Source: an uncultured Collinsella sp.
GTDB lineage: Bacteria > Actinomycetota > Coriobacteriia > Coriobacteriales > Coriobacteriaceae
NCBI GenBank assembly: GCA_900541175.1
Contig: UQIT01000003.1
Location: forward strand, 40,133 to 104,132
Direction of reading: 5' to 3'
Length of the DNA: 64,000 nt
Position 1 is the stretch's first letter. Every line of letters begins with the position of its first letter. The position numbers and the translations under genes are program-made. Below are positions 19,385-49,770 of the stretch, in pieces. The notes below the pieces were generated by a model that searched no databases, was not told where the DNA came from, and saw only the letters and a program-made list of their open reading frames with translations.

Positions 19385-19524
19385 GGCTTGGCAGAGGGGC
19401 GGCGAAATATATTAAGTTTGCTGCTCTACAGTCCTGCGCAAGACGGAAAGCACATTAAGTGCTTTCCTTTGCGTGCGGAACTCGCGACAAACTTAATATA
19501 TTTCGCCGCCCCTCTGCCAAGCTC
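19385..19524. repeat. Long hairpin element, copy A, upstream of rplC: a perfect 34-bp outer stem enclosing an 82-bp core.
   Basis: Left arm CTTGGCAGAGGGGCGGCGAAATATATTAAGTTTG is the exact reverse complement of the right arm. The core is AAGTTTGCTGCTCTACAGTCCTGCGCAAGACGGAAAGCACATTAAGTGCTTTCCTTTGCGTGCGGAACTCGCGACAAACTT. Confidence 0.85.
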
Positions 19525-19566
19525 GGGAGACGACACGTTGATGTCTGCTTAACTCTGCTCGCTCAG

Positions 19567-20193
19567 CTAATTACTTTGTTGGGGGTCCACTATTTGCTGG
19601 AGGGTGAACTTGCATTGAGACGGTTCGCCTTCTGCTTGTGGCTTTGCCTCATCGAAATCGAAGATCATGATGGCGCAGTTGGGGAGTTTTGTTGGGAGCT
19701 CGAAGCCCTCTGGGGCTGCGGCCTTGATAAATTGGCGGCTGGCGCTGCCGTGGCTTACTGCTAGAAGGGTTTCGATGCCCTCGGAGCCCATGATATTGGT
19801 GAGAGTGTCCACCATGCGTTCTTGCAGCGCCTGGCTTCCTTCTCCTCCGTAAGGGACCAAGTCCTCGCCCGGATCCCAGACGTCGGTGGGTAGCGCGTCG
19901 TGTGGGCCCTCTTCGAAGGTGCCGTAGCAGCGCTCGATGATGCCTTCGCAGGGCTCGACTGCTGCGTCCGGGCCGAGGAGTTCGGTAGCGACGAGCTGAG
20001 CAGTGTCCATGGCTCGGCCTAAGGGCGAAGAGACCACTTTGTCGGGGACAACGTCGTGGCCCTTGAGCCATGCGGCTGCCATTCCCGCTTGTTTGCGGCC
20101 CAGGTCGGTCAGCGGTGAATCGCAGCGGCCCTGGACCAGCTTTTTGACGTTGAACTCCGTCTGACCGTGGCGGAGTAGATACAGCTTCTTCAT
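19567..20193 (-). CDS. Histidine phosphatase family protein (phosphoglycerate mutase-like).
   Basis: N-terminal catalytic RHG motif (LLRHGQTEFN). Confidence 0.8.
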   Translation of the reverse strand: MKKLYLLRHGQTEFNVKKLVQGRCDSPLTDLGRKQAGMAAAWLKGHDVVPDKVVSSPLGRAMDTAQLVATELLGPDAAVEPCEGIIERCYGTFEEGPHDALPTDVWDPGEDLVPYGGEGSQALQERMVDTLTNIMGSEGIETLLAVSHGSASRQFIKAAAPEGFELPTKLPNCAIMIFDFDEAKPQAEGEPSQCKFTLQQIVDPQQSN

Positions 20194-20232
20194 GCTCTCC
20201 CCTTCTGCATAACCTGCTTTGCCGGCACAGCC

Positions 20233-21393
20233 TTACTCGTGGGTATGCCCTACGTAGTCTTCGTCGATCGTAATCTTGGCAATCGACTTGGGATATTCCG
20301 ATTCGACCCGTTGTGCCAGCGCGTGCTTTAAGTCTTCGGCACTCATCTGCAGATCCGAGGGACGCACGCAGTCAAAGATCACGTTGGTGTGCGTAGGACC
20401 CGGCACACAGCGTAGGTCATGAATCGAGAGGCGGTTATCGATCTCCTGAGCCATGGCGTGAATGCGCAAGCGCATGCTCGCCACCTTTGGATCGTCGGTC
20501 ACGATGGGGTCGTAGTGAAGTGTGACAATCATGCCGTCTTCGTTCCTAAACGACTGCTCGATGTTATCGAGCGTGTCGTGACTTTCCAGCGGGCTGGCCT
20601 CGGCTGCCATCTCGGCGTGAGCGCTTGCGAACTTCCTGCCCGGGCCGTAATCGTGAACCATCAGATCGTGAACGCCCAAAACGCCGGGATAGCTCATGAT
20701 CTTGTCTCGAATGTGCTTGACCAGCTTAGGATCGGGCGTCTGGCCCAAAAGCGGGCTCACCGTATCCTGGATGAGTTCAAAACCGCTCCAGCCAATATAG
20801 GCACCAACGGCAAGGCCGACCCAAGCGTCAAGGTTGATGCCCGTCACCTGCGAAACAATTGCGCACGCCAGTACGGCGCCCGTGGCAAGAACATCGTTCT
20901 TGGAATCCTGCGCGGTCGCATGCAGCGTCTCGGACTCAATGCGATCGCCGAGCTTTTGGTTGAGGGCCGCCATCCAGAGCTTTACGACCATCGAAAGCAC
21001 TAGAACTGCCACCAGGGCAAGCGAGAACTCGACAGGTTCGGGGTGGATGACGCGCTCGACCGAGGACTTCACCAGCTCAACGCCAATCAGCAGCACGAGT
21101 GCCGCCACGACCAGACCCGAGAGATACTCGTAGCGACCGTGGCCGTAAGGATGCTCGGGGTCGGCCGGCTTGCTCGCCAGCTTAAAGCCCAGCACGCTCA
21201 CGATATTCGAGCTGGCATCGGACAGGTTGTTCATGGCATCCGCCACGATCGAAACCGATCCCGAAACCACACCAATTGCACTCTTCGCAGCACAAAGCGC
21301 AACATTGGCGACAATACACACCATGCCCGCTAACGTGCCCACACGCGCACGATCGCCCTGCGCGCGACGAACAATCCACTCGACCATCTGCAT
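20233..21393 (-). CDS. Cation diffusion facilitator (CDF) family divalent metal efflux transporter.
   Basis: Six predicted transmembrane segments with CDF signature region (SDASSNIVS); C-terminal cytoplasmic domain. Confidence 0.8.
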   Translation of the reverse strand: MQMVEWIVRRAQGDRARVGTLAGMVCIVANVALCAAKSAIGVVSGSVSIVADAMNNLSDASSNIVSVLGFKLASKPADPEHPYGHGRYEYLSGLVVAALVLLIGVELVKSSVERVIHPEPVEFSLALVAVLVLSMVVKLWMAALNQKLGDRIESETLHATAQDSKNDVLATGAVLACAIVSQVTGINLDAWVGLAVGAYIGWSGFELIQDTVSPLLGQTPDPKLVKHIRDKIMSYPGVLGVHDLMVHDYGPGRKFASAHAEMAAEASPLESHDTLDNIEQSFRNEDGMIVTLHYDPIVTDDPKVASMRLRIHAMAQEIDNRLSIHDLRCVPGPTHTNVIFDCVRPSDLQMSAEDLKHALAQRVESEYPKSIAKITIDEDYVGHTHE

Positions 21394-21465
21394 CCGCCCC
21401 CACGGTACTACTTATATATCTATTGCTCAAACGGATTGTAGTGTAGCCACTTTGCCCTCCAGATA

Positions 21466-21501
21466 CAAAAAGGCCGCAGCCCACACGGGCCGCGGCCTTG
21501 G
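21466..21501 (-). terminator. Intrinsic terminator after the PTS EIIC gene.
   Basis: Minus-strand read AAGGCCGCGGCCCGTGTGGGCTGCGGCCTT followed by TTTTTG. Confidence 0.65.
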
Positions 21502-21537
21502 AACACGACAAAGGGATCGTCCTTTTGTCGCACAGGT

Positions 21538-22777
21538 TTATGCGCTTACTTCAGCAGCGCTCGCCACTGTTTCGGGCGAATCGGCTCCGTCCTCCGTCGC
21601 CTGCCCCTTCGCCGGCACCACGCCAAAGCAGTAGCTCAGAGCCGCAGACACCACAAATGCCACACCGCCGGCAACGCAGCACCACAGCAGGTTCGAGATG
21701 CCGCCCGTAGCAAAGCCAATGACCATGAGGACATTCGTCATGCCGATGGTATAGGCCGTAACGTGGCCCACGGCCGCAACAAGGCCTCCGACGGCGCCGC
21801 CAATGGCCATACACGTCAGGCACCTGCCATATTTAAAGCCGCAACCGTACAGCGCCGGCTCGCTCACGCCGCCCAGAACACCCGAGATCGAATAGCCCAG
21901 CATGAGCGCCTTCTCGTCCTTATCCGCAACGCGGAGCGACGCGCCAAAGGGCATGCCCCAAACGGCAAACGTTGCCATCGTCGCGGCGATCAGAATGCAC
22001 GAATCCGTTCCCACACTCATAAACTGCGCGTAGGCGAGCGATAGGACGACGTTGCTGACGCCCGCGATCTTTAGGAACTCCCAGCCCGCGGCAAGCCCCA
22101 TGAGCGTGAGCAGCGACACGATGCCACCGGAATTGCCAAGCATAAACATAAGCTGGCCCAACAACATGCCCAAATAGCTGCCCGCCGGCGCCGTAATACA
22201 CAGCGAAACCGGAACCATGACAAGCATGGTCGCAAACGGAACGAACGAAAACGCCACGGCCTTAGGGATAACGCGCCGAAAGAAACACTCCACTCGCCAA
22301 AGCACGGGCACCGAGATGAGAACCGGAATAACAGTCGTCGTGTAATCGTTGACCGGCGCGGGAAGCAGGCCATACACGGAAGTCATCGATGCCCCCGTCG
22401 TCGATGCGGCATCGACGAGCTTAAGCAGATCGGGCGCAATCAATACGCCGCCCAGCATCATGCCCAGCTGCTCCGAGCAACCGAGCTGGCGGGCGGCCGC
22501 CCAACCAAGATAAATGGGCAAAAAGTAGTAGCCGGCGTTATAGAGCCAACTGTAGAACAGGCGATAGATTTCGGAATCGGCAGACCATAGGCCCAGCATG
22601 CCTTCGCCCATAATGACGGCGACGGTGCGGAACAACGCCGCGCAGACAATAAACGGCAGCGCCGACATCATGCTTTTGGACAGATAGTCCACCACGGCCA
22701 TGGCGTTTGATGAAACCGTCGTTGTAAACGAGGTGTTAGAAACTTGTGACACAGGAACCCTTTCCCAATGTGACATG
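21538..22777 (-). CDS. PTS sugar transporter EIIC component (glucose/maltose family); EIIC domain only.
   Basis: GISEP-like motif GGVSEPALYG. ATG at 22777 has an AAGGGA RBS, so the longer ORF start at 22950 is rejected. It lies 16 nt downstream of accDA on the same strand. Confidence 0.6.
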
Positions 22778-22792
22778 CGGACTGTCCCTTTG

Positions 22793-24517
22793 TTACATCG
22801 TGCTGTACCGACCGATTGCGCGGTACTTTTCGTAGCGGAGGTTTGCGAGGGTCGCGTCGTCGAGCCGCCCAAGCGTATCGAAGGCATCAAATGCCGAGGA
22901 CATGACGGCGCCGGCAATCTCCTCATGCGACAGGCCCCTATCGTCGACAATGCCGTCGATGATGCCGAGCGCCAACAGATCGGGGGCCGTGAGCTTCAGC
23001 GCCTCGGCGGCCTCATTCGCGCGCTCGGTATCCTTCCACAGGATCGACGCACAGGCCTCGGGGCTCACGACCGAATAGGCCGAGCTCGAGAGCATCAGGA
23101 TGCGGTCGGCCACGGACAGCGCTAGCGCGCCACCAGAGCCGCCCTCGCCTGTCACCACCGAGACAATCGGCGTCTTAAGGCCGCTCATCTCCATGAGATT
23201 CTGGGCAATTGCCTCGCCCTGGCCGCGCTCCTCGGCACCGATGCCGCAAAACGCGCCTGAAGTATCGACCAGGCACAGAACCGGCCGACCAAACTTTTCG
23301 GCCTGGCGCATAAGGCGACGCGCTTTGCGGTAGCCCTCGGGATGCGCCATGCCAAAGTTGCGGCGCATGCGCTCTTTGGTCGTGGTGCCGCGCTCGATGG
23401 CGATGACCGTTACGGGACGTCCGTCTTTCCAGCCAATGCCAGCCACCACAGCGGCGTCGTCGCCAAAGTAACGGTCGCCATGCAGCTCCACAAATCCGTC
23501 CAAGCCCAGCGAGATTATCTCACCCGCCGTGGCACGATCTGCCGAGCGGGTCTGTTTGACAATCTCGAGCGCGGTTTTTGGTGCCGCCGAGCGCTTAAAC
23601 AAGTGTCCCAGCTTTTTGCCGCGGCGACCCACATGCACAATCTCATGCGGTGCCCCCAGGCTGGGCGCATGCCCTTCGTGCAGCGCCAACAACTCGCCTA
23701 CCGTGAGCGTAATCTCGCCGCGCGGAACAACGGCATCGCACAAGCCGTGCTCCAGCAAAAACTCGGAGCGCTGGAATCCCTTGGGCAGGCGCTTGTGCAT
23801 GTTCTGCTCGATCACGCGCGGGCCGGCAAATGCCGTCAGGGCATCGGGCTCGGCCAGGATAATGTCGCCCTCCATGGCAAAGCTCGCGGTTACGCCTCCG
23901 GTCGTGGGGTCGGTGAGCACCGTGATATACAGGCCGCCCGCCTCGCTGTGGCGCCTAACCGCCGCAGAAATCTTGGCCATCTGCATAAGCGATGTCACGC
24001 CCTCTTGCATGCGCGCACCGCCCGAAACGGTAAAGCCGACAACTGGCAGCCCCAGCTCGGTCGCATGCTCAAATGTGCGACAGATCTTCTCGCCCACCAC
24101 GGAGCCCATCGAGCCCATCATAAAGTTGGCATCCATAAAGAAGAGCGCGGTATCGCAACCGCAGATTTTGCCCTTGCCGCACACAACGGCATCGCGCTCG
24201 CCCGAACGCTCGCTTACGCTCTTGAGCTTGTCGGCATAGCCGGGAAACGAGAGGAAGTCCTCCGACGCCAGATTTGCATCCCATTCCTCAAACGTGCCCT
24301 CGTCGACCGTCATGCGCATGCGCGCGCGACCGCTCACGCGAAAGTGTTTGCCGCAACGAGGGCAGACCTCGAGGTTGTCGCGCAGGCGTGCCTCATCGAT
24401 CACACGGCGGCACTCCGGACACTTGATAAACACGTGGCGCGCGGGAAACTCGGCGCACGACTCGGTCATCGGCCCCTCGAGGACGTTGACCGTCTTCGCT
24501 TTTCTATTCATCAGCAT
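22793..24517 (-). CDS. accD-accA: Acetyl-CoA carboxylase carboxyltransferase, fused beta (AccD, N-terminal) and alpha (AccA, C-terminal) subunits. Start may be internal (alternative ATG at 24469).
   Basis: N-terminal AccD zinc ribbon CPECRRV...CPRCGKHF. The C-terminal half matches AccA (RRNFGMAHPEGYRKARRLM, GEGGSGGALAL). Single ORF with no internal stop. Confidence 0.85.
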   Translation of the reverse strand: MLMNRKAKTVNVLEGPMTESCAEFPARHVFIKCPECRRVIDEARLRDNLEVCPRCGKHFRVSGRARMRMTVDEGTFEEWDANLASEDFLSFPGYADKLKSVSERSGERDAVVCGKGKICGCDTALFFMDANFMMGSMGSVVGEKICRTFEHATELGLPVVGFTVSGGARMQEGVTSLMQMAKISAAVRRHSEAGGLYITVLTDPTTGGVTASFAMEGDIILAEPDALTAFAGPRVIEQNMHKRLPKGFQRSEFLLEHGLCDAVVPRGEITLTVGELLALHEGHAPSLGAPHEIVHVGRRGKKLGHLFKRSAAPKTALEIVKQTRSADRATAGEIISLGLDGFVELHGDRYFGDDAAVVAGIGWKDGRPVTVIAIERGTTTKERMRRNFGMAHPEGYRKARRLMRQAEKFGRPVLCLVDTSGAFCGIGAEERGQGEAIAQNLMEMSGLKTPIVSVVTGEGGSGGALALSVADRILMLSSSAYSVVSPEACASILWKDTERANEAAEALKLTAPDLLALGIIDGIVDDRGLSHEEIAGAVMSSAFDAFDTLGRLDDATLANLRYEKYRAIGRYSTM

Positions 24518-25847
24518 AGAGATGCCCCATCAGATCGGTGTGGTACATGCCCGACAAGAACTCGTCGTTTGCCAGCACGTCGAGCTGAAGCTCGCTGTTT
24601 TCGCTCACGCCTTCAATCACGAGCTCGCCCAGGGCCGAGCGCATCTTACGAATAGCGCCGTCACGCGTGGGCGCACACACGATGAGCTTGCCGAGCATAG
24701 AGTCGTAGTACGGCGGAACTTTCGCACCGGTAAACATGGCGGAATCCCAGCGTACGCGCGGACCACCCGGCACACGCAACGCGGTGACCGTTCCACATGA
24801 CGGCAGAAAGTCCGGCGTCTCGGCATTGATGCGGCACTCCATGGCGTGGTTTCGGACCGGCATGTCCTCCTGCTCAAAGGGCAGAGGCTGGCCGGCTGCC
24901 ACACGCAGCTGCCCCTTGACCAGGTCGGTATCGGTCACAAACTCCGTAACCGGATGCTCCACCTGCAAGCGCGTGTTCATTTCCATAAAGTAGAAATTGC
25001 CGTCGTCCGAATACAGAAACTCAATGGTGCCGGCGCCCTCATAGCCAACGGCACGAGCCAGGTCGCGCGCGGCCTTGTGCATGCGCGCGCGAATATCATC
25101 GCGTCCGTCGAGGCACGGCGCGGGGCTCTCCTCGATCAGCTTTTGGTTGCGACGCTGCACCGAGCACTCGCGCTCGCCGAGCGAAAACACATGGCCCAGC
25201 TTATCGGCCATAATCTGCACCTCAACGTGGTGCGCCGGCGCGACGAACTTCTCCATGTAGCACTCGCCGTCGCCAAAAACGGCCTCGCCCTCGGCACGCG
25301 CCTCGATGAACGCCTTTGCCGCATCTTCCACGCGCTCGACCTTGCGAATGCCGCGACCGCCACCACCTGCACGTGCCTTAATAAGCACGGGGCAGCCAAT
25401 GCGCTCGGCCTCGGCCGTCGCCTCCTCGGGGCTTTTGAGCAAATCGCAGCCCGGCACGATGGGCACGCCCGCCGCGGCAGCCGTTCGACGTGCGGCGTCC
25501 TTGTCGCCCATGCTGTCGATCACCTCGGCCGAAGGACCGACAAACGCCAGGCCATACTTGTCGCAGTCGCGCACGAAGCTCGCCTTCTCAGAAAAGAAAC
25601 CGTAGCCAGGATGGATTGCCTTTGCCCCCGACTTCACGGCACAGGTGAGCACAGCATCGTCGTTGAGATAGCTCTCGGCAAGACGCGGGCCACCGATGCA
25701 ATACGCCTCGTCGGCAAGCTGCACGTGCAGCGCGTCCGCATCGGCCGTGGAATAAATGGCGACGGTCTTGATGCCCATATCGCGGCACGCGCGGATAACA
25801 CGGACCGCGACTTCGCCGCGGTTGGCGATGAGCACTTTGTCGAACAT
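24504..25847 (-). CDS. accC: Acetyl-CoA carboxylase biotin carboxylase subunit.
   Basis: MFDKVLIANRGEVAVRVIRAC; RBS AAGGAAGG precedes ATG at 25847. The 73 codons upstream in the ORF track are an extension. Confidence 0.9.
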   Translation of the reverse strand: MFDKVLIANRGEVAVRVIRACRDMGIKTVAIYSTADADALHVQLADEAYCIGGPRLAESYLNDDAVLTCAVKSGAKAIHPGYGFFSEKASFVRDCDKYGLAFVGPSAEVIDSMGDKDAARRTAAAAGVPIVPGCDLLKSPEEATAEAERIGCPVLIKARAGGGGRGIRKVERVEDAAKAFIEARAEGEAVFGDGECYMEKFVAPAHHVEVQIMADKLGHVFSLGERECSVQRRNQKLIEESPAPCLDGRDDIRARMHKAARDLARAVGYEGAGTIEFLYSDDGNFYFMEMNTRLQVEHPVTEFVTDTDLVKGQLRVAAGQPLPFEQEDMPVRNHAMECRINAETPDFLPSCGTVTALRVPGGPRVRWDSAMFTGAKVPPYYDSMLGKLIVCAPTRDGAIRKMRSALGELVIEGVSENSELQLDVLANDEFLSGMYHTDLMGHLYADE

Positions 25848-25857
25848 GAAGCCTTCC

Positions 25858-26289
25858 TTAACTTTCGTGCATGAGTGCAAAGGACATATCGGCGCGGCAG
25901 CAAACCTCACCGTTGACGCTCGCGGTACCCGTCGCAAAGCGGAACGGCCCGCGCGCACGCGTGATGGAGCACACCAGATCCACCGTGTCGCCCGGGCGCA
26001 CCGGACGCTTAAAGCGCACCTTGTCCAGACTCGTGTAGAACGGCGTCGCGCCGCGCGCCTCCTCATCGCCCATCAGCAGCACGCAGCAGTTCTGGGCGAG
26101 CATCTCGCACTGAATCACGCCGGGGACGACCGGGTTTCCCGGAAAATGCCCCTGCAAAAAGTACTCGTCGCCCGTAATCGTGATCTTGCCGTGGGCCTCG
26201 TCGCCCACCAGCTCGGCTTCGTCGAGCAAAAGCATCGGCTCGCGATGCGGTAACAGCTTCTTGAGCTCTTCTTTGTTCATGGATATCAC
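25858..26289 (-). CDS. fabZ: 3-hydroxyacyl-ACP dehydratase FabZ.
   Basis: HFPGNPVVPGV hotdog motif. Confidence 0.9.
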   Translation of the reverse strand: MISMNKEELKKLLPHREPMLLLDEAELVGDEAHGKITITGDEYFLQGHFPGNPVVPGVIQCEMLAQNCCVLLMGDEEARGATPFYTSLDKVRFKRPVRPGDTVDLVCSITRARGPFRFATGTASVNGEVCCRADMSFALMHES

Positions 26290-26763
26290 CTATCCGATCC
26301 TCATGAGGCAGCTGCCAAACTCCACGAGGTCGCCGTCGGCCACGCAGATCTCGAGCACCTCGCCATCCGCCTCGGCCGTTACCTCGTTGAGAACCTTCAT
26401 GGCCTCGATGATGCAGAGGGTCTCGCCGGCCTTGACCTTAGAGCCCACGTGCACAAACGGCTCGTCGCCCGGCGCCGGGGCAGCATAGAAAACGCCGACC
26501 ATGGGAGCGGTCACCTCGGTGCCCTTGGGCTCCGGTGCGGCGGCAGGTGTCTGCGCGGCGGGCTCCGGTGCGGCAGGCGCGACTGTGGGAGCTTCAACTG
26601 GAGCGGCCATAGCGCTCGGCATAGGCATGGGCACGGCAACCGGCTGCGCTGCACTCGCGCGCTCGAGCTCAACCGCGGTGCCATCGGGCTCCTCAACGCG
26701 CACGCGCGTGAGGCCGCGGTCCTCCATAACATCGGCTATCTCGGCAAGTCTTTTGGAATCCAT
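26290..26763 (-). CDS. accB: Biotin carboxyl carrier protein AccB.
   Basis: Biotinyl-lysine motif EAMKV and a Pro/Ala-rich linker. Confidence 0.85.
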   Translation of the reverse strand: MDSKRLAEIADVMEDRGLTRVRVEEPDGTAVELERASAAQPVAVPMPMPSAMAAPVEAPTVAPAAPEPAAQTPAAAPEPKGTEVTAPMVGVFYAAPAPGDEPFVHVGSKVKAGETLCIIEAMKVLNEVTAEADGEVLEICVADGDLVEFGSCLMRIG

Positions 26764-26766
26764 GCT

Positions 26767-28032
26767 CTAGCTCCTCGTATATCTACGCAGCGCGATGGCG
26801 GCGTTGTGCCCGCCAAAGCCCAGGTTGGTCGAAAGCGCCCAGGTAAGGTCGGCGCGAACCGCGCGATTGGGCGTGTAGTCAAGATCGCAGGCGGGATCGG
26901 GCGTGTGGTAGTTAATGGTCGGCGGCACCACGCCCTGCTCGAGCGCCATGGCGCAGGCCATGACCTCGATGGCACCCGTGGCACCGATCATGTGGCCGGT
27001 CATCGACTTAGTCGACGAGACGCGCGCGGCGCGCGCCGCGTCCTCGCCGAGCGCACGCTTAATGCCCGCCGTCTCGGACGAATCGTTGAGCTTGGTCGAG
27101 GTGCCGTGGGCATTGATGTAGAGACCCTCGGAAGGCCTGACGTCGCCCTCGGTCACCGCCAGCGATATCGCGCGGGCAATGCCGGCAGCCTCGGGATCAG
27201 GGCTCGTGATGTGATAGGCATCATCGGTGTTGCCGTAGCCCACGACCTCGGCATAAATGTGCGCACCGCGCGCCTGCGCATGTTCCATGCTCTCGAGTAC
27301 CAGCACGCAGGCGCCCTCGCCCATCACAAAGCCATCGCGGTCTGCATCGAACGGGCGGCAAGCCGTCGCGGGATCGGGGTTGGTGGTCAATGCACGGCAG
27401 GACGTAAAGCCTGCAACGGCATCGGGGATAATGGCCGCCTCGGCGCCGCCCGCGAGGATCGCGTCGGCATAGCCATGCTTGATGGCGCGGAACGCCTCGC
27501 CCACCGCATGGGCCGAGGTTGCGCACGCGGTCACCACGGGCAGGGTCGGGCCCTTTGCCTTGTGGCGGATCGCGATATTGCCCGATGCCATGTTGGGGAT
27601 CATCATCGCGATCATATAGGGCGATGCGCGGCGGGGCCCACGGTCGGCAATCGTATGGACGTTGTCGACAAGCGTCTGCATGCCGCCCACGCCCGAGCCC
27701 ACGTAGACGCCCAGGCGCTCGCGATCGATGGCGCCTTCGACATCAAAGCCCGCATCGTGCATCGCCTCGTCCGAAGCCGCCATCGCAAACTGAACGCAGG
27801 GGTCGAGATGCTTGGCGTCACGCTTGCCAAAGTACTCGTTGCCGTCAAAGCCCTTGACCTCGGCCGCCACCTTGACGGCAAATGCATCGGTATCGAAGTG
27901 CGTAATCGGGCCGATGCCGCACGTGCCAGCGCACATTGCCGCCCAGGTGGCAAGCGCGGTGTTGCCGAGCGGCGATACGGCACCTATGCCGGTGATTGCA
28001 ACTCTCTGTTCCATCATGGTCTCCTCATCCAA
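26767..28032 (-). CDS. fabF: Beta-ketoacyl-ACP synthase II.
   Basis: Active-site Cys (ACATSAH) and His residues. The start may be a few codons in from the ORF start. Confidence 0.9.
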   Translation of the reverse strand: MDEETMMEQRVAITGIGAVSPLGNTALATWAAMCAGTCGIGPITHFDTDAFAVKVAAEVKGFDGNEYFGKRDAKHLDPCVQFAMAASDEAMHDAGFDVEGAIDRERLGVYVGSGVGGMQTLVDNVHTIADRGPRRASPYMIAMMIPNMASGNIAIRHKAKGPTLPVVTACATSAHAVGEAFRAIKHGYADAILAGGAEAAIIPDAVAGFTSCRALTTNPDPATACRPFDADRDGFVMGEGACVLVLESMEHAQARGAHIYAEVVGYGNTDDAYHITSPDPEAAGIARAISLAVTEGDVRPSEGLYINAHGTSTKLNDSSETAGIKRALGEDAARAARVSSTKSMTGHMIGATGAIEVMACAMALEQGVVPPTINYHTPDPACDLDYTPNRAVRADLTWALSTNLGFGGHNAAIALRRYTRS

Positions 28033-28053
28033 GCCGTTCTTCGGCCCTGATTT

Positions 28054-28827
28054 CTACATCGCCATTCCGCCGTCAACGCGTACAACCTCGCCCGTAATGT
28101 AGGAAGCCGCATCGCTCGCCAAAAAGCGCACCACGCCGGCCACTTCCTCGGGGCGCGCCATGCGCTTAAGGGGAATCTGCTCCTCGGTTGCCGCACGAAC
28201 CTTTTCCGAAAGCTTTGCCGTCATATCTGTCTCGACAAACCCGGGGGCGACCGCGTTCACTCGTACGCCGCGGGGCGCAAGCTCGCGCGCCACCGCCTTG
28301 GTCAGGCCGATCACGCCCGCCTTGGAGGCAGCGTAGTTGGCTTGCCCGGCATTGCCCATCAGGCCCACAACCGAGCTCATGTTGACGACGCAGCCGCCGC
28401 GCTGGCGCATAAAGGTCTTGGTGAGCGTGCGCGTCATGTTAAACGTTCCTTTAAGATTGACATCGAGCACACGATCGAAGGCGTCATCGCCCATGCGCAT
28501 GAGCAGGCCATCGCGGGTGATGCCAGCGTTGTTGACGAGCGCCCAAATGGAGCCAAAGTCGTTGAGGACCGTCTCCACGCAAGTGTTGACGGCGGCGGGG
28601 TCGGCCACGTCACATTGATATGCGCGCGCCGTGGCGCCTGACGCCTCGCAGGCTTCGCACGTCTCGCGCGCCGCATCTGCGCTACCGGCATAGACGACGG
28701 CGATATCAAAGCCGTCCTCCGCCAGGCCCACGGCACAAGCGCGACCGATGCCGCGCGAGCCGCCCGTGACAAGCGCCACGCGACGTGAGTCGTTGCGCTC
28801 GAGCGCGCCGTTGTTCAAGTTGCCCAT
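28054..28827 (-). CDS. fabG: 3-oxoacyl-ACP reductase FabG.
   Basis: SDR family: TGGSRGIG and YAASKAG. Confidence 0.9.
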   Translation of the reverse strand: MGNLNNGALERNDSRRVALVTGGSRGIGRACAVGLAEDGFDIAVVYAGSADAARETCEACEASGATARAYQCDVADPAAVNTCVETVLNDFGSIWALVNNAGITRDGLLMRMGDDAFDRVLDVNLKGTFNMTRTLTKTFMRQRGGCVVNMSSVVGLMGNAGQANYAASKAGVIGLTKAVARELAPRGVRVNAVAPGFVETDMTAKLSEKVRAATEEQIPLKRMARPEEVAGVVRFLASDAASYITGEVVRVDGGMAM

Positions 28828-28857
28828 GTCATTCCTTTCGGGTTACAGCCCTGTGAA

Positions 28858-29784
28858 CTATGCGAGCTCGTCGGCAATAGCTGCGACCTGCTCGGCCGTT
28901 TCGCACGAATACACGCGAACGTCGCTCAACGTACGCTTGACCAGGCCCGACAGCGTTTTGCCGGGGCCGACCTCAATAAACGTGTCGATGCCCTGATCCT
29001 GCAGAGTGTGCAGTGTGTCGACCCAGCGCACGGCATGGCTCACCTGGTTGGCCAAGACATCCGATGCCGCCTGCGGGTCGGCCGGATAGGGCGCCGCCGT
29101 CATATTTGCCATGACCGGAATGTGCAACGGGGACGGGGCGTGCCCGGCCTCGATATATGCAGCAAGGCCACAGGTCGCCTCGGCCATATAGGGGCTATGG
29201 AATGCACCCGACACCGCGACCTTCATGGCCCGGCCACCAGCCTCTTTTACCAGGACGTCGAGGGTCTGCAACGCATCGGGCGCTCCGGCCACAACCGTCT
29301 GCTGCGGGCTGTTGTAGTTGACCGGCCAGCAGTCCTCGCCGGCCTTTTTTGCCAAGCCCTCGACCTGCGCCGCATCGAGTTTGATGACGGCGCGCATGCC
29401 GCCGGGGTGACGCTCAGCCGCCGTGGCCATCAATGCCGCGCGCTCACACACGAGCTCAAAGCCCGCTCTCGTATCGAATGCCCCCGCAAAGGTGAGTGCA
29501 GCGACCTCGCCCAGCGAGAATCCCGCACAGGAGGCAGGCACCACGCCGCGCTCACGCAGGGCGACGGCGACAGCCAAGTCGTGCACGAACACGCAAGGCT
29601 GTGTGTTCTCGGTCTGCGAGAGCTCCTCCTTGGAGGCGCTCCGGCACTGCTCGCTGGTCCCCGGGCGCACCTCGTCGGCAATGGCGAACACCTCGGCAGC
29701 TGCCGGCGATGCTTCGATGAGGTCGACGCCCATCGCGGGATGCTGGGCACCCTGACCGGCAAACAGAAACGCTACGCTACCCAT
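28858..29784 (-). CDS. fabD: Malonyl CoA-ACP transacylase FabD.
   Basis: GFSLGE active-site motif. Confidence 0.9.
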   Translation of the reverse strand: MGSVAFLFAGQGAQHPAMGVDLIEASPAAAEVFAIADEVRPGTSEQCRSASKEELSQTENTQPCVFVHDLAVAVALRERGVVPASCAGFSLGEVAALTFAGAFDTRAGFELVCERAALMATAAERHPGGMRAVIKLDAAQVEGLAKKAGEDCWPVNYNSPQQTVVAGAPDALQTLDVLVKEAGGRAMKVAVSGAFHSPYMAEATCGLAAYIEAGHAPSPLHIPVMANMTAAPYPADPQAASDVLANQVSHAVRWVDTLHTLQDQGIDTFIEVGPGKTLSGLVKRTLSDVRVYSCETAEQVAAIADELA

Positions 29785-30719
29785 GCGGACGCACCCTTCA
29801 GGACATGCTCGGCGCCATCGACCAGATCGTCAACGATTTCGCGTGCGCTCTGGCGTTCGTTGACCATGCCGGCAATCTGTCCGCACAAATACGAACCCTC
29901 TTCGTAATTACCGTCCTTTGCAGCTTTACGAAGCGCGCCCGTGCCCATGGCCCCAAGCTCCTCGGGGCTTGCGCCCGCCGCCTCGTTCTTGGCATACGCG
30001 TTAGTGAAGGGGCTCTTGAGGGCGCGAACCGGATGTCCCGTCGAGCGACCGGTCGCACGCGTCGACGTGTCGCCCGCCTTGAGCACCAGCTCTTTGTACT
30101 GTTCGGATACGGTGCACTCGTTTGCGACCAGAAAGCGTGTTCCCACCTGGACGCCGGCGGCGCCGAGCATAAAGGCGGCCGCCACACCGCGGCCATCGGC
30201 GATGCCGCCAGCCGCAACCACGGGAATATCGACCGCATCGACAACCTGCGGCACTAGTGCCATCGTCGAGGTCTCTCCAATATGGCCGCCTGATTCGGTG
30301 CCCTCTGCAACCACGGCAGTTGCTCCGCGACGCGCCACGAGACGCGCCAGCGCCACCGAAGCCACGACGGGTATGACCTTGATGCCTGCATCGTTCCAGG
30401 CCTTCATGTACTTGGTGGGATTGCCGGCGCCGGTCACCACAACGGGCACCCGCTCATCAATCACCACTTGTGCGACCTCGTCGACAAACGGGCTCATGAG
30501 CATAACGTTGACGCCAAAGGGCTTATCCGTCTTGGCGCGCAGCTCGTGAATCTGATCGCGCAGCCAGTTTGCGTCGGCATTCATGGCCGCGATAATGCCT
30601 AAGCCGCCCGCCTCGGACACGGCAGATGCCAGCGAGGCGTCGGCAATCCAGGCCATGCCACCCTGGAATACGGGCTTTTCGATGCCGAGCAGATCGCAGA
30701 GAGGAGACTTGAGCATCAC
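29772..30719 (-). CDS. fabK: Enoyl-ACP reductase II (FMN-dependent, nitronate monooxygenase fold) FabK.
   Basis: FabK-type protein at the fabK position of the streptococcal-order cluster. No FabI/FabL/FabV homologue in the cluster. Confidence 0.8.
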   Translation of the reverse strand: MMLKSPLCDLLGIEKPVFQGGMAWIADASLASAVSEAGGLGIIAAMNADANWLRDQIHELRAKTDKPFGVNVMLMSPFVDEVAQVVIDERVPVVVTGAGNPTKYMKAWNDAGIKVIPVVASVALARLVARRGATAVVAEGTESGGHIGETSTMALVPQVVDAVDIPVVAAGGIADGRGVAAAFMLGAAGVQVGTRFLVANECTVSEQYKELVLKAGDTSTRATGRSTGHPVRALKSPFTNAYAKNEAAGASPEELGAMGTGALRKAAKDGNYEEGSYLCGQIAGMVNERQSAREIVDDLVDGAEHVLKGASAWVA

Positions 30720-30955
30720 TACTTCTCCAATGCCGCCTCGACCGTATCGACGAACTCGCCGACCGTCTTGGGGTTCTCCTCGGTATCGAGCTCAATGCCA
30801 AACTCGTCCTCGACGGCAACGAGGATCTCGACGGTACCCAGACTGTCGAGGCCAATCTCCTCGAGCGTGGACTCGGGCTTCATCTCGACATCGTCAAGGC
30901 CGGCGGTCTCGCGGATAACGTCGCAAACCCGCTCGAAGGTCTTCTGATCTGCCAT
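30719..30955 (-). CDS. acpP: Acyl carrier protein.
   Basis: MADQKTFERV..., with the LDSL phosphopantetheine attachment site. RBS AAAGGAGAAG precedes ATG at 30955. Confidence 0.9.
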   Translation of the reverse strand: MADQKTFERVCDVIRETAGLDDVEMKPESTLEEIGLDSLGTVEILVAVEDEFGIELDTEENPKTVGEFVDTVEAALEK

Positions 30956-31007
30956 GGTACTTCTCCTTTGTTTGTGCCCCAGGGGCGTTTTCATTTCCTA
31001 TGTGCAA

Positions 31008-31967: not shown

Positions 31968-31984
31968 CACTAACCTCCTTTGAG

Positions 31985-32050
31985 TTGTTGACGTGTTTAC
32001 ATCGACCAAGAGAGGATAGCGCATTTCAGTCGTTGTTGACGTGTTAACAT
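31985..32050. promoter_or_regulatory. Two direct copies of a 19-bp operator-like motif, GTTGTTGACGTGTT(T/A)ACAT, in the fabH-birA divergent intergenic region.
   Basis: Copies at 31985-32003 and 32032-32050, 47 bp centre to centre. Each contains a TTGACG -35-like hexamer and a near-palindrome (GTTGAC...GTTAAC). Confidence 0.55.
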
Positions 32051-32143
32051 TAAATTGTCCAAATGCGACAAAGGCTTCACATTGTGTCTGTCTCTCGACA
32101 CCATTGCGTTATTCACTTATTCATTAAGGAGGTAGCAGCCGCT

Positions 32144-36916: not shown

Positions 36917-37048
36917 GTTTTCGGAAGTATGCGGCAAATTATGAACTTACCGAGCACACAGGGATTTTGCGATAACAAACCCGCAGGTAGAACGCTTGAG
37001 CATATACGGTGTGGTCGACCCATCAAGATTTTGCCGCATACTTCAGAA
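36917..37048. repeat. Long-range 17-bp inverted repeat (GAAGTATGCGGCAAA / TTTGCCGCATACTTC) enclosing about 90 bp.
   Basis: Arms at 36921-36937 and 37032-37046. Lies in the 680-bp non-coding stretch between the anti-sigma gene and rpsL. Confidence 0.55.
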
Positions 37049-37090
37049 ATGCAGGCGAATATCGTGCGGTCTAACCGCCCATTTACCGCA

Positions 37091-37129: not shown

Positions 37130-38206
37130 TTACGAATAGACGATGGTAAAGGGTTCCGACGTTTCGGCGCCCCCTGTTGAAGTGCAGCGTGTGCCTTCGA
37201 GCGTTACTGAAACCACTTGGTCGACATCAATCAACTTCGTTGGCACCCAAATGTTCTCTCCGCTATTGCGTGCCATCGAAACATAGAAATTGTACGCCCC
37301 TGCGTCGTCATCTTCGATAATCTGCTCCGATCCATCCTTGTAGCTGACGGTCAGTTTATGATCAACTGCTTCATAGCCCAGATCATCGATGTGCGTCTGG
37401 ATGGAAAACGGGCTAATCTCGAGAGGCGAGTCATCAGAGCGGAGTTCCTTTGTATCGACGTGCGCTCCGACGTTAAACTCTGGCGTCGATACCTCGATCA
37501 CCTTCGCATCCTCACCTTTGCCCTCCGTCCAGCTGATATTCCAGGTGACCGCATGTCCCAAATCTCGCTCGCGATTCCACGAGGCAAAGTACATCGTGCC
37601 ATTAATGACCGTGTCGCTTGATGTGTCCTTATCAATTGTGCAGCGTGTGTCAGCCCATTCCTCGCCGAAGTTCATGCTGGGTGTACCGATGCCTTGTTCT
37701 TCTTCACCATAGAGAACAAGTTCGCCTGTCTCTGCTGCCGGCTTGTAGTAGTTAACGCCATTTGGATTGGACAACGTAAACGTCACGGCTCCGCAGCCGT
37801 TTTGGTCAATAGCCATCTCATGGATATCAAGCGTATAGCCGTTACCCTCGACGGACAGATTAACCTCCTGGACTGCACCCTCCAGGCTTTGGGGCGCGAT
37901 GCCATCACCAAACTCTCTGGTGTAGGTATATTTAGTTCCCGATGAGCCTCCGTTGGTCCAGGTAATGGAATCCCCATTGCCGTGGTTTCCCCAGGCTGAG
38001 GCAAAATAGCTGGAATTGACAACGGCGTAGGCGACCCCTCCGGTCGCCAACACTCCGGCAAGACATCCGATTACGGCAACATACAGAGGTTTCGCGTGAC
38101 CCTTTCGACGAAGCGGCTTTCCAGCCGCAGCATCAATAACACGGTCGGCAAGATCGCTATCGGCTTGGATGGACTCGAAGGCCTGCTTGATTTGATTGGA
38201 TTTCAC
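37130..38206 (-). CDS. Putative membrane-anchored anti-sigma factor: N-terminal cytoplasmic segment, one transmembrane helix, ~280-aa extracytoplasmic domain.
   Basis: Transmembrane segment LYVAVIGCLAGVLATGGVAYAVV. Overlaps the 3' end of the ECF sigma gene by 50 nt. GC is lower than the surrounding ribosomal genes. Confidence 0.6.
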   Translation of the reverse strand: MKSNQIKQAFESIQADSDLADRVIDAAAGKPLRRKGHAKPLYVAVIGCLAGVLATGGVAYAVVNSSYFASAWGNHGNGDSITWTNGGSSGTKYTYTREFGDGIAPQSLEGAVQEVNLSVEGNGYTLDIHEMAIDQNGCGAVTFTLSNPNGVNYYKPAAETGELVLYGEEEQGIGTPSMNFGEEWADTRCTIDKDTSSDTVINGTMYFASWNRERDLGHAVTWNISWTEGKGEDAKVIEVSTPEFNVGAHVDTKELRSDDSPLEISPFSIQTHIDDLGYEAVDHKLTVSYKDGSEQIIEDDDAGAYNFYVSMARNSGENIWVPTKLIDVDQVVSVTLEGTRCTSTGGAETSEPFTIVYS

Positions 38207-38751: not shown

Positions 38752-38832
38752 AAATTCAAGCAGGAAAAACCTACCAAAAATTAATCAGTCCCTTTTTGGC
38801 AGGCTTTCTTCAACAAAAAAGACCCGCTTCCC

Positions 38833-48051: not shown

Positions 48052-48300
48052 AGTATTCAGGGATCCTTTCGCAGGCGCAGGATGCGCCCTGTGCGTGCGG
48101 CACGGCGGCCGCAGACCAAATTGCGATACCGGTTTATCTTACCGCCGTTAATTAACGTTACTGTAGGCAAGCGCCATTCTTCAGCAGGTCAACGCAAATT
48201 ATTGCTCGAATGGTGCAATTTTATCGCCCAACGGTAGCGACCCCAAAGCACCGCAAGCGGCAGCAATTTGTATGCCAAGCCAACAAAATAGAGGGATCAA

Positions 48301-48336
48301 AACGAAAAAGACGGGGCTCGCAATGCGAACCCCGTC
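48301..48336 (-). terminator. Intrinsic terminator after rplL.
   Basis: Minus-strand read GACGGGGTTCGCATTGCGAGCCCCGTC followed by TTTTTCGTTTT. Confidence 0.75.
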
Positions 48337-48364
48337 TGCAAAGAAATCTGGCGAGAAAGCCTGA

Positions 48365-48742
48365 TTACTTGAGGGTGACAGCAGCGCCAGCAGCCTCGAG
48401 CTTCTCCTTGGCAGCCTCGGCGTCCTCCTTCTTGGCACCCTCGAGAACAGCCTTGGGAGCGCCCTCGACGACCTCCTTGGCCTCCTTCAGGCCAAGGTTG
48501 GTGAGCTCACGGACGGCCTTGATGACCTGGATCTTGTTGTCGCCGAAGCCCTCGAGCACGACGTCAAACTCGGTCTTCTCCTCGGCCTCAGCAGCGCCAG
48601 CAGCGGGAGCGGCGACAACAGCGGCAGGAGCAGCGGCGGAAACGCCGAAGGTGTCCTCGATAGCCTTAACGAGCTCGGAAGCCTCGAGAAGGGTCATTTC
48701 CTTAAGAGCATCGATGATCTCATCGGTGGTAAGCTTAGCCAT
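48365..48742 (-). CDS. rplL: 50S ribosomal protein L7/L12.
   Basis: [34 protein letters not shown]. The ORF extension to 48775 is rejected. Confidence 0.95.
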
Positions 48743-48844
48743 TTCTAAGTCCTTTCGGTTTCCGTGTCTGTGCACGGAGATCAGTTAAAACACGGCGCGA
48801 ATGCGCCAGGGGTGCGGCGTTGCCGCCGCGGGTGAAAACAGCGA

Positions 48845-49366
48845 CTAGGCTGCCTTCTGCTCGGAGACCTGCTGGATCGAACGAGCGAGACCAGAGGAAA
48901 CGCCGTTGACGCAGACAGCGATGTCGCGAGCGAAACCGGAGATGAGACCGGCGATCTGGCCGAGAAGCTGGTCCTTGGTGGGCAGCTCGGCGATAGCCTT
49001 AACATCATCAGCGGAAACGGCCTTGCCGTCGGAGATACCGCCCTTGATCTCAAGGACGCCCTTGGACTTAGCGGAGAAGTCCTTAAGGGTCTTAGCGGCC
49101 TCGACCGGCTCGGTCTCGTAGAACACATAAGCGACGGGGCCGGCGAGGATCTCGTCGAGCTCGGGCTGCTCCTGGTTCTTGAGAGCGATCTTGACCAGGT
49201 TGTTCTTGTAGACCTTCATCTCGGCGCCGCACTCGCGAAGCTGATGACGCAGCTCCTGAGCCTGCTTAACCGTCAGACCGTTGTAGTTGACGACGAACAG
49301 ACCGGCGTTCTCGGCGATACGGGACTCGATCTCTGCAACCTTGTCGATTTTGTACTGCTGGGGCAT
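48845..49366 (-). CDS. rplJ: 50S ribosomal protein L10.
   Basis: L10 family match, directly upstream of rplL. Confidence 0.9.
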   Translation of the reverse strand: MPQQYKIDKVAEIESRIAENAGLFVVNYNGLTVKQAQELRHQLRECGAEMKVYKNNLVKIALKNQEQPELDEILAGPVAYVFYETEPVEAAKTLKDFSAKSKGVLEIKGGISDGKAVSADDVKAIAELPTKDQLLGQIAGLISGFARDIAVCVNGVSSGLARSIQQVSEQKAA

Positions 49367-49651
49367 GAATTACACCTCCTCGATTTCTTTCCGGGCACGG
49401 TCCGCCACAAGGACGTGACGGGGGCATGTCCAAAAAGAAAGCCCCCGCGCTGCATGAGCGACGGGGGCGAGAAGACATATCTACTCGACCACCTCGGCTG
49501 GCGGGATATCCCATTAAGCTCGCGGGCGATGCCCGTTTGCACCGGCTGTCTCTGGCAGCGGATTCGTGCGTGAACCGAAAGTATTATGGCGGGGACCCCG
49601 GCGTCGGTCAACGGAAAACCGGGCTGTACACAATTCCACCATCCGGCCGCA

Positions 49652-49770
49652 CCGCCGAAGGCCAGGCGCAAGGTTTTCGCTCGGTCAAGTCCTGGCTCGC
49701 ACGAAGGCCACATTAAGTGGCCTTCGGCTCGTGCGGAATCTACGAAAACCTTGCGCCTGGCCTTCGGCGG
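49652..49770. repeat. Long hairpin element, copy C (diverged), upstream of rplJ: a perfect 28-bp outer stem.
   Basis: Arms CCGCCGAAGGCCAGGCGCAAGGTTTTCG and its reverse complement. The core keeps AGTCCTG, the CAC-ATTAA-GTG loop and CGTGCGGAA. The inner stem CGAAGGCCAC/GTGGCCTTCG replaces GGAAAGCAC/GTGCTTTCC of copies A and B with full pairing preserved. Confidence 0.8.

Follow-up and report, generated by a model that had tools for sequence, protein, structure and literature searches.

Three long hairpins upstream of ribosomal-protein genes

The window (the whole stretch of Collinsella DNA that was analysed, 64,000 nucleotides long) carries rplC, rpsL and rplJ, and upstream of each gene lies one long palindromic hairpin, referred to here as copies A, B and C. 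The features are listed below, with the genes given as context only.

18498-19118, minus strand: rplC (L3), downstream of copy A
19371-19537, plus strand: copy A, whole hairpin; stem of 35 bp without mismatches (19386-19420 / 19488-19522), continued outward in decayed form to 19371 / 19537
19421-19487, plus strand: asymmetric core of copy A; AGTCCTG, inner helix CGCAA/TTGCG, apical stem GGAAAGCAC-ATTAA-GTGCTTTCC, and CGTGCGGAA
19567-20193, minus strand: histidine-phosphatase family gene, stop codon 45 nt from copy A
36072-36449, minus strand: rpsL (S12), downstream of copy B
36543-36571, minus strand: promoter-like site TTGACG-17-TATCCT separating copy B from rpsL, within a stretch that hardly varies across 11 genomes
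36656-36794, plus strand: copy B, whole hairpin; stem of 36 bp (36656-36691 / 36759-36794) with a single T·G mismatch, around the core 36692-36758
48845-49366, minus strand: rplJ (L10), downstream of copy C
49583-49611, minus strand: promoter-like site TTGACC-17-CATAAT between copy C and rplJ
49648-49774, plus strand: copy C, whole hairpin; perfect 28-bp stem 49652-49679 / 49743-49770, core 49680-49742
49871-51007, minus strand: aminotransferase gene, stop codon about 100 nt from copy C

A preliminary description of this DNA had placed three hairpins at these positions, and all of them were recovered. Folded as single-stranded DNA, copies A, B and C had energies of -62.2, -64.5, and -58.8 kcal/mol, with z scores against dinucleotide shuffles of -16.1, -15.0, and -12.0, respectively. 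The covariance-model scan of the window returned exactly these three copies, all on the plus strand at 98-99 bits, and the next match reached 15 bits. The distances to the start codons were 267 nt for rplC (19118), 206 nt for rpsL (36449), and 282 nt for rplJ (49366), in agreement with the 200-290 nt described. On the other side, the co-oriented, non-ribosomal upstream genes have their stop codons 45 (A), 336 (B), and 101 nt (C) before the elements. The core shared by copies A and B had been described as 82 bp of complete identity; the identity was verified, and the block proved to be 85 nt long (19412-19496 = 36683-36767). Beyond it the arms are unrelated, as had been noted. The stem of copy A is indeed perfect, at 35 bp instead of 34 bp, and its arms show 90% complementarity over 50 nt (19371-19420 / 19488-19537). 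Copy C represents a diverged subfamily and matches its earlier description: its outer stem of 28 bp is perfect (32 bp at 97% when extended to 49648-49774), AGTCCTG, CAC-ATTAA-GTG, and CGTGCGGAA are kept, and the compensated apical stem reads CGAAGGCCAC-ATTAA-GTGGCCTTCG.

Because the promoter-like sites separate the element from rpsL and from rplJ, the element is probably outside the leaders of those operons; none was called for rplC. The terminator scan called none of the three copies, and no U tract was found. The native terminators of this genome have stems of 11-16 bp with flanking A and T tracts. A terminator-like module was observed 3' of copy B and of the copies at the RNase J site, on the plus strand. 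In line with the earlier statement that this is not a described leader, no Rfam family matched at the gathering score in the window, and around copy B just chance-level matches (E > 0.4) were obtained.

Anatomy and distribution of the repeat in Collinsella

The pattern scan of genomes gave at least 120 loci, nearly all of them in Collinsella, and at least 28 distinct intergenic sites were occupied among the matches listed. Only 3 of these (at least 28, among the matches listed) lie upstream of ribosomal-protein operons; the other neighbors include pnp (PNPase), rnj (RNase J), valS (ValRS), leuS (LeuRS), gyrA, polA (Pol I), uvrD, nrdD, def (peptide deformylase), thrC (threonine synthase), PTS genes, and sulfatase genes. 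The proposed confinement to the upstream regions of ribosomal-protein operons therefore does not hold. Many matches were located at contig ends, as expected for a multicopy repeat, and the covariance model found about 117 copies in 700 kb of fetched loci, about 17 more than one anchor per locus. We estimate tens of copies per Collinsella genome. Scattered copies without ribosomal bias and without covariation would have meant a generic repeat in the preliminary description; the copies were dispersed without such a bias, but covariation was abundant.

The repeat is palindromic and 125-170 bp in size, and in each copy a long stem of site-specific sequence carries at its tip a core of about 65 nt that is conserved and asymmetric. 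AGTCCTG marks the 5' side of the core and CGTGCGGAA its 3' side, and most copies also have a CAC-ATTAA-GTG apex and internal loops. The apex is variable (the copy at locus L048 carries another), and a CTAC/GTAG tetranucleotide was found in some variants only. Among 112 complete copies, the median stem was 31 bp and the maximum 49 bp, with 74 stems perfect and 30 containing one mismatch. The similarity of arms from different sites barely exceeds the reversed-sequence null, and what they loosely share is a G-rich 5' half and, 22-30 nt from the core, a CCGG motif. AAGTTTG/CAAACTT, previously taken as a terminal inverted repeat, is the innermost stem segment and covaries across the family, so that it is not a fixed terminus. 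The stem ends are sharp, and the flanks are inverted complements (e.g., TGAAG...CTTCA and TTATG...CATAA), not direct repeats; no target-site duplication was found. The outer arms differ from site to site, and family-wide terminal inverted repeats are absent. Within the fetched loci, we saw no parent insertion sequence, no transposase or other candidate gene beside any copy, and no excision footprints, and no small gene lay between inverted copies (a RAYT-like arrangement) in the 8-kb loci.

Copies are intergenic, beside genes of all kinds, and most lie a few nucleotides 3' of a stop codon, some of them within likely operons (nrdD-nrdG, def-fmt, and thrC-thrB). By flanking genes, 17 of 27 sites were tandem, 7 convergent, and 3 divergent. 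The two ends of the element are not equivalent: the nearest gene lay a median of 17 nt away on the AGTCCTG side but 217 nt away on the opposite side, stop codons less than 50 nt away favored the AGTCCTG side by 14 to 1, and at 14 of the 27 sites a stop codon lies 4-46 nt ahead of the arm on that side. Such a bias is unexpected for a purely symmetric DNA hairpin. Some elements form inverted doublets with a spacing of 93-145 nt, and others are single. An integron attC site was considered and rejected, as the copies stand singly or as inverted doublets amid housekeeping genes, with no cassette arrays beside intI.

Occupancy also differs between genomes. At the rpsL site the core is missing in 2 of 10 genomes, one of which (L129) has no element at all and the other (L124) one arm, whereas at rplC and at rplJ the element was present in every one of the 10 places fetched per site. 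Downstream of rpoC, a 192-bp unit including the element is duplicated in L121, and L123 and L130 have a second copy with near-identical flanks at the same place. As no transposase, target-site duplication, or fixed termini were found, the evidence for mobility consists of dispersal and presence/absence differences.

Complementarity and divergence of the arms

At the DNA level, the two arms pair by Watson-Crick complementarity. Covariation was seen at 20 of 27 pairs when 53 sequences were aligned, and one-sided (G-U) changes are almost absent. The 47 mismatches in 3357 bp of stem from the 112 complete copies comprise 17 C·A, 13 G·T, and 17 transversion-type. Relative to transcription, the element can point either way, tandem sites being '+ +' in 7 cases and '- -' in 10. 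The preliminary description had correctly recognized a genuine family in which pairing is kept as the sequence diverges and had read this as selection on a structure, either an RNA leader or a DNA cruciform or protein site. However, because G-U pairs are virtually lacking, C·A mismatches are about as frequent as G·T, indels are mirrored, and both orientations occur, the covariation is Watson-Crick palindromy and no sign of RNA selection.

Between orthologous alleles, the arms differ by 0.216, fourfold sites by 0.143, and the core by 0.083. Inside one copy, the two arms differ from each other by 0.014, and this contrast (1.4% arm to arm vs 21.6% ortholog to ortholog) is the pattern of concerted evolution. 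Close alleles at the rplJ site are separated by single compensated substitutions, and at the rplC site a 4-nt indel is mirrored on both arms; fresh one-arm mutations are present in some alleles, e.g., L056 and L146. Divergence is bimodal between sites, and some sites have discrete haplotypes with arms 30-46% apart and flanking fourfold sites differing by about 5%. These haplotypes and the bimodality are not accounted for by concerted evolution alone. Alleles at the rpsL site agree in the distal arm GGATTCCCGG.CCGGGCGGC but have a wholly different core-adjacent segment of 7-8 nt; at the gyrA/tRNA site, L100 has a different subfamily within the same outer flanks; and in chimeric copies the junction falls within the core. 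The cores of copies A and B are 100% identical even though orthologous cores vary from genome to genome, which requires recent exchange between copies or reinsertion. Inversion of the core would be expected occasionally from template switching, and no orthologous site has the core in both orientations.

Origin and probable effect of the repeat

We consider it probable that the element is a REP/MITE-like dispersed palindromic repeat with arms under concerted evolution and no role beyond that of a large gene-boundary hairpin. REPINs are REP doublets that form hairpins and are mobilised by RAYT transposases (Y1 HUH). Like the REP/BIME/REPIN repeats of Proteobacteria, the Collinsella repeat is extragenic, multicopy, and vertically persistent, forms long hairpins as single-stranded DNA or RNA, lies mostly at gene 3' ends and inside operons, and occurs as singlets and inverted doublets. 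Compensatory changes on both sides of the hairpin have likewise been published for REPINs (PMC3116915). The architecture, however, is reversed: REPINs have conserved REP 16-mers at the base and a variable spacer at the tip, whereas the Collinsella repeat has a conserved asymmetric tip and a freely varying base. It also differs in having no conserved GTAG-type tetranucleotide, no RAYT in the fetched loci, and an actinobacterial host of the class Coriobacteriia. With the MITEs Correia (Neisseria), ERIC/IRU, RUP, and BOX, it shares a size of 100-170 bp, long inverted-repeat arms, a hairpin, intergenic dispersal, likely effects on neighboring transcripts, and broken short-read assemblies, and, as in MITEs, there are many dispersed copies with presence/absence differences. 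Unlike them, it has no target-site duplication, flanks that carry on the inverted symmetry, no family-wide terminal inverted repeats, no known parent insertion sequence, and site-specific arms. The small repeat or MITE that the preliminary description kept as a fallback came close to the truth.

The arms resemble the repeats attributed to template switching in bacteria (Ripley model; PMC5941160), in which imperfect arms are made perfect, substitutions and indels are mirrored, and orthologous sites retain perfect repeats to a greater extent than neutrality predicts. The published cases are mainly short repeats at unrelated sites (PMC5941160), whereas here 30-49-bp arms of a whole family are concerned, the asymmetric core is untouched, and the accompanying spacer inversion was not seen. 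The element is also like the L10, S10, and str leaders and intrinsic terminators in being a GC-rich hairpin upstream of rplJ, rplC, and rpsL and elsewhere just past stop codons. It is unlike the leaders in extending beyond ribosomal operons, lying upstream of promoter-like sites at rpsL and rplJ, and matching no Rfam family, and unlike intrinsic terminators in lacking a U tract and having a stem three to four times longer than native ones.

Alternatively, existing long palindromes, possibly old terminators or remnants of earlier copies, could have received a small mobile core of about 85 nt (roughly TTAAGTTTG...CAAACTTAA) exactly at their dyad center, the arms then being target DNA. The identical 85-nt blocks of A and B within unrelated arms, the allele-specific 7-8 nt inside a conserved distal arm at rpsL, the exchanged subfamily in L100, the single arm without a core in L124, and the sharp stem ends are consistent with this, and insertion at a dyad would account for the missing target-site duplication. 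We nevertheless regard it as unlikely: neither the 150 loci nor the window contained an empty palindrome, native terminators are unlike the arms, the basal 7 bp covary continuously with the arms and thus give the core no fixed ends, the arms of different sites have loose features in common, and compensated point changes between close alleles would still demand homogenisation in place. It is quite unlikely, too, that the element is a DNA hairpin or cruciform site at which a dedicated protein acts, such as a RAYT/HUH-type or IS110-type transposase, a tyrosine recombinase, or a nuclease. Such a protein would move the element or repeatedly cut it and synthesise it anew, restoring perfect arms and giving rise to new haplotypes. 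Asymmetric motifs and internal loops are conserved within an otherwise free-running palindrome, and the discrete haplotypes with mirrored indels, the chimeric copies joined in the core, the orientation bias linked to the core, and the inverted doublets would all fit such a protein. However, no candidate gene adjoins any copy in the fetched loci, the GTAG-type tetranucleotide is restricted to some variants, neither excision footprints nor target-site duplications were seen, and the apex varies, differing in L048.

A structured RNA, whether a ribosomal cis-regulatory leader, a small RNA, or a 3'-UTR element with stems under selection for RNA pairing, appears very improbable. Conserved pairing and unpaired motifs, the single fixed orientation of the element at the 14 sites just past stop codons, and the terminator-like module speak in its favor, but the sites extend well beyond ribosomal operons, promoter-like sites lie downstream of the element at rpsL and rplJ, and Rfam gave no match. 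The mismatch spectrum and the two orientations relative to transcription point the same way, and an RNA would hardly be affected by one mismatch in a 30-49-bp stem, whereas 66% of the stems have none.

For the dispersed repeat with concerted arms, we infer that changes in one arm, be they substitutions or indels, are transferred to its partner, most likely by intramolecular template switching during replication (quasipalindrome correction). Each copy would thereby remain perfectly palindromic, and orthologous copies would diverge at about the neutral rate. The core may be maintained by selection, e.g., as a protein-recognition site for spreading, or by exchange between copies, and the family probably spread long ago as a non-autonomous mobile element. 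By analogy with REP/BIME-type repeats, its cellular effect would be that of a very stable hairpin at gene boundaries, expected to insulate or attenuate transcription and to guard mRNA ends. Within the window, the probable role of the element is to keep read-through from the upstream genes away from the rplC, rpsL, and rplJ promoters rather than to serve as a leader. The three hairpins are thus not a ribosomal leader but copies of a repeat of Collinsella gut bacteria that is scattered between many kinds of genes and whose arms stay perfectly complementary as DNA despite sequence drift.

Three long hairpins beside ribosomal-protein genes

The preliminary description had placed long hairpins, here copies A, B and C, upstream of rplC, rpsL and rplJ. 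Their presence was confirmed by strong folding of the single-stranded DNA, with energies of -62.2, -64.5 and -58.8 kcal/mol (z of -16.1, -15.0 and -12.0) for A, B and C, respectively, and by a covariance model, which recovered exactly these three from the window (each at 98–99 bits and on the + strand), with the next match at 15 bits. The element's + strand is the one that reads with AGTCCTG on the 5' side of the core.

Copies A, B and C and their surroundings (window coordinates)
19386-19420 / 19488-19522, + strand: copy A, perfect 35-bp stem, with a decayed extension to 19371 / 19537
36656-36691 / 36759-36794, + strand: copy B, 36-bp stem with a single T·G mismatch
49652-49679 / 49743-49770, + strand: copy C, perfect 28-bp stem
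18498-19118, - strand: rplC
36072-36449, - strand: rpsL
48845-49366, - strand: rplJ
19567-20193: histidine phosphatase gene, upstream neighbour at copy A
37130-38206: gene for a 358-aa protein of no known kind, upstream neighbour at copy B
49871-51007: aminotransferase gene, upstream neighbour at copy C
36543-36571: promoter-like hexamers TTGACG-17-TATCCT, between copy B and rpsL
49583-49611: promoter-like hexamers TTGACC-17-CATAAT, between copy C and rplJ

Copies A and B are identical over 85 nt (19412-19496 and 36683-36767), beyond which their arms are unrelated. Copy C retains AGTCCTG, CAC-ATTAA-GTG and CGTGCGGAA, and its apical stem is fully compensated. All ribosomal-protein genes of the window lie on the minus strand, and each copy sits between a ribosomal operon and the stop codon of a co-oriented, non-ribosomal upstream gene. 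No promoter-like site was called between copy A and rplC, and the stretch from copy B to rpsL was nearly invariant across 11 genomes. Within the core, inspection by eye found no conserved hexamers at a spacing workable for an outward-facing promoter. The window's native terminators have 11-16-bp stems with A and T tracts on either side, unlike the element. No Rfam family was matched by the window at gathering thresholds or by an E-value search around copy B, in keeping with the earlier statement that the hairpins correspond to no described leader.

Several other sequences were observed in the same stretch. An identical 11-mer, GGGCGTATCCA, lies upstream of rplC (19317-19327) and rpsL (36586-36596), near the promoter region; with one mismatch allowed, the window holds 3 matches against 0.95 expected, a count reached in 9 of 100 shuffles. 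The S10 operon is split, unlike its usual form: about 14 kb (window 19118-33345) lies between rplC and rpsJ (33037-33345) and contains birA and genes for fatty-acid synthesis, a CDF transporter and a phosphatase. Another family of long-hairpin repeats has the opposite layout, with conserved arms (AGTTGCGGTGGAATAGTTCCTG...) and differing centres (53755-53870, -64.8 kcal/mol; 63295-63365, -34.6 kcal/mol). An imperfect long hairpin upstream of rpsL (36919-37049) is present in the window and in two fetched loci from elsewhere (L125, in which the arm changes are compensated, and L127), is half present in locus L124, and is absent from the other genomes. A terminator-like module, CCTGCCAAAAAGGGACAGGTTTATTTTGG, is repeated at 10907-10950 (+), 36819-36858 (+) and 38764-38807 (inverted); one of them is found 25 nt rightward of copy B, where its + strand T-run is antisense to the local genes, and in other genomes the module also comes after the element at the RNase J site. 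Between convergent genes at 10948-11017 is a long palindrome without the core (~22-bp stem, ~24-nt loop, -41.9 kcal/mol).

A repeat family at gene boundaries

To survey the family, one genome per species was scanned with the pattern CACATTAAGTG-N8-18-CGTGCGGAA, which yielded at least 120 loci. Nearly all of the matches listed were from Collinsella, with a few in unclassified Coriobacteriaceae or 'uncultured bacterium' bins. One typical copy lies at the end of a 5-kb contig labelled Methanobrevibacter smithii (CAVHBE010000088.1, locus L038), which is probably mis-binned Collinsella. Many matches were at contig ends, as is expected because repeats break assemblies. A link to phages was rejected, as only three matches were on viral contigs. 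The scan pattern undersamples the family, since a variant in locus L048 has another apex (GGAGGCGCC-ACTG-GCGCCTCC). No description of the family was found in Rfam or by full-text searching for Collinsella repeats, and a broader literature query gave no Collinsella paper among those listed; a paper on microbiome RNA motifs that mentions Collinsella deals with a different, 51-bp motif upstream of L7/L12.

Complete copies occupy at least 28 distinct intergenic sites, with neighbours including PNPase, RNase J, threonine synthase, DNA polymerase I, ValRS, LeuRS, UvrD, GyrA, a TsaD fusion, NrdD, peptide deformylase, PTS, serine dehydratase and a sulfatase-family protein. The proposal that the element is confined to ribosomal-protein operons is therefore refuted, because its sites adjoin many kinds of gene. 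The window happens to be rich in ribosomal operons; the initial observation was real and its headline interpretation wrong. Across the fetched loci (700 kb), the covariance model identified about 117 copies, of which about 17, or roughly one per 40 kb, were additional to the locus anchors. Together with the three copies in 64 kb, these extra copies suggest, as a rough estimate, some tens of copies per 2.3-2.4-Mb genome.

In every copy, a long outer stem encloses a core of ~65 nt, which contains a compensated apical stem of 9-10 bp and conserved motifs that are unpaired or loosely paired. Among the 112 complete copies, the outer stem reaches 49 bp (median 31 bp); 74 of these stems pair perfectly and 30 contain a single mismatch. 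The AAGTTTG/CAAACTT pair, initially taken for a terminal repeat, is only the innermost 7 bp of the stem, and its pairs covary across the family (TAGTTCG/CGAACTA, AAGGTCG/CGACCTT and AACATCG/CGATGTT also occur). No direct target-site duplication was found at the copies, because the inverted symmetry carries on into the flanks. Stem ends are sharp in most copies, and some keep decayed outer layers; a gradual decay of pairing past the stem was rejected, since ungapped pairing falls at once to the random level of 0.25-0.30 and gapped relics occur in some copies only. Arms of different sites are essentially unrelated (8 pairs scoring at least 12, versus 1 under the null, a marginal excess). What they have in common is loose: their 5' halves are rich in G (G 718, C 493), and a CCGG/CCCGGG motif occurs 22-30 nt away from the core. 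The idea that copies carry a conserved, non-palindromic right-hand tail was also rejected, as GTTGG and CGTTG are enriched there but not general, and flank matches between sites were traced to neighbouring elements and one terminator-like module.

Orientation was counted at the 27 sites with a called gene on either side. Both genes were opposite to the element's + strand at 10 sites and on the same strand at 7, and the genes were convergent at 7 and divergent at 3. This occurrence in either orientation to transcription argues against a strand-specific RNA. The AGTCCTG-side end was closer to a gene at 22 of the 27 sites (Wilcoxon p = 0.004), with a median distance to the nearest gene of 17 nt, versus 217 nt for the other end. 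A stop codon reading into the element from within 50 nt was found 14 times on the AGTCCTG side and once on the other, at the rplC site. At thrB, valS, leuS and sdaA, the AGTCCTG-side end abuts the ribosome-binding site of an opposite-strand gene, as judged by eye from flank sequences. Several copies also lie within likely operons (nrdD-nrdG, def-fmt and thrC-thrB), positions at which a strong terminator is unlikely and an intercistronic hairpin like those of REP elements more plausible. The element also forms inverted doublets with a separation of 93-145 nt, seen between pnp and rnj and between convergent genes. Orientation relative to replication was not convincing by local GC skew (19 vs 9 sites) or by gene-strand bias (11 vs 17).

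Arm evolution and site haplotypes

The covariation noted in the preliminary description was borne out as far as pairing is concerned, but not as a sign of RNA structure. In an alignment of 53 sequences, double changes were present in 20 of 27 pairs, whereas one-sided (G-U) changes were nearly absent. The 47 stem mismatches (17 C·A, 13 G·T and 17 transversion-type) are an unfiltered mutation spectrum with neither strand preferred. Between orthologous alleles, the mean difference was 0.216 for the left arm, 0.213 for the right arm and 0.083 for the core, compared with 0.143 at fourfold-degenerate sites of flanking genes, and the two arms within one copy differed by 0.014. Close alleles are separated by single mirrored substitutions (for example, L029 and L084 at the rplJ site), the two arms at the rplC site show a 4-nt indel in mirror form, and a few alleles, such as L056 and L146, carry fresh changes in one arm. 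Selection on folding is an unlikely keeper of the perfect arms, because an RNA or a terminator with a stem of 30-49 bp should be little affected by a single mismatch. We infer that the arm pattern fits DNA-level concerted evolution of both arms, for which template switching at quasipalindromes is an established bacterial mechanism (PMC5941160); earlier work noted compensatory changes between the two sides of REPIN hairpins (PMC3116915). Spacer inversion, a possible companion of template switching, was not seen at orthologous sites.

The rplC and rplJ sites each carried the element in 10 of 10 places fetched. At the rpsL site, the core is missing from two of 10 genomes: L129 lacks the element and neighbouring modules, and L124 keeps the rpsL-proximal arm alone. 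At ~2160-2300 of L124, an arm of the element and an arm of the 36919-37049 hairpin directly abut, which looks like a deletion between the centres of two adjacent hairpins. No empty site was present among the fetched loci, a biased test in that loci were chosen by element presence. Locus L121 carries twice, at 96-287 and 2133-2324 and with 94% identity, a 192-bp segment comprising the element and ~25-35 bp of decayed outer flank per side; this segment lies downstream of rpoC as well as upstream of rpsL. In L123 and L130, too, a second copy occupies this position downstream of rpoC, and its flanks are nearly identical.

Single sites carry discrete element haplotypes. The rplC site has three, each a perfect palindrome, with arms 30-46% different versus ~5% at flanking fourfold sites, and arm divergence is bimodal across sites. 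Chimeric copies with non-complementary arm segments (L126, L007:6705-6794, L077 and L047) look like allele recombinants with a crossover in the conserved core. Recent exchange or reinsertion is implied by the identical cores of copies A and B, because orthologous cores differ.

Nature and significance of the element

The element is an interspersed palindromic repeat of the REP/MITE-like kind, distributed genus-wide, that we place outside both classical MITEs and REPINs: unlike the former, it has neither a target-site duplication nor shared termini, and unlike the latter, it has a reversed architecture and no conserved GTAG motif. It most likely works as a large DNA or RNA hairpin at gene boundaries, its two arms most likely being homogenised by replication-associated template switching. 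The divergent haplotypes, the chimeras and the identical cores of A and B go beyond simple concerted evolution. Because simple concerted evolution leaves these features unexplained, insertion of the core at hairpin tips and a core-directed enzyme were both kept in consideration. It is improbable that a dedicated enzyme recognises the conserved asymmetric core, either to prime fold-back synthesis after a nick or cut at the hairpin or to insert the element into hairpin tips. Such an element would rebuild its own perfect arms from one strand, and the proposal would account for the perfect arms, the mirrored indels, the discrete and strongly diverged single-site haplotypes, the core-junction chimeras, the identical cores in unrelated arms and the fixed orientation to gene ends. 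It would then be a self-symmetrising mobile palindrome, a kind undescribed in bacteria.

These results remove a false lead, in that the three ribosomal operons have no shared regulatory leader. They also show that abundant 'textbook covariation' can arise from DNA palindromy instead of RNA structure, the signs of palindromy being a lack of G-U pairs, a symmetric range of mismatch types and indels mirrored between the arms. The family provides a natural system, with dozens of orthologous sites in hundreds of genomes, for measuring the concerted evolution of long inverted repeats. For Collinsella, an abundant human-gut genus, it defines a repeat that breaks short-read assemblies and marks gene boundaries and, if the core were an enzyme recognition site, could reveal a new route by which small DNA elements spread or persist.
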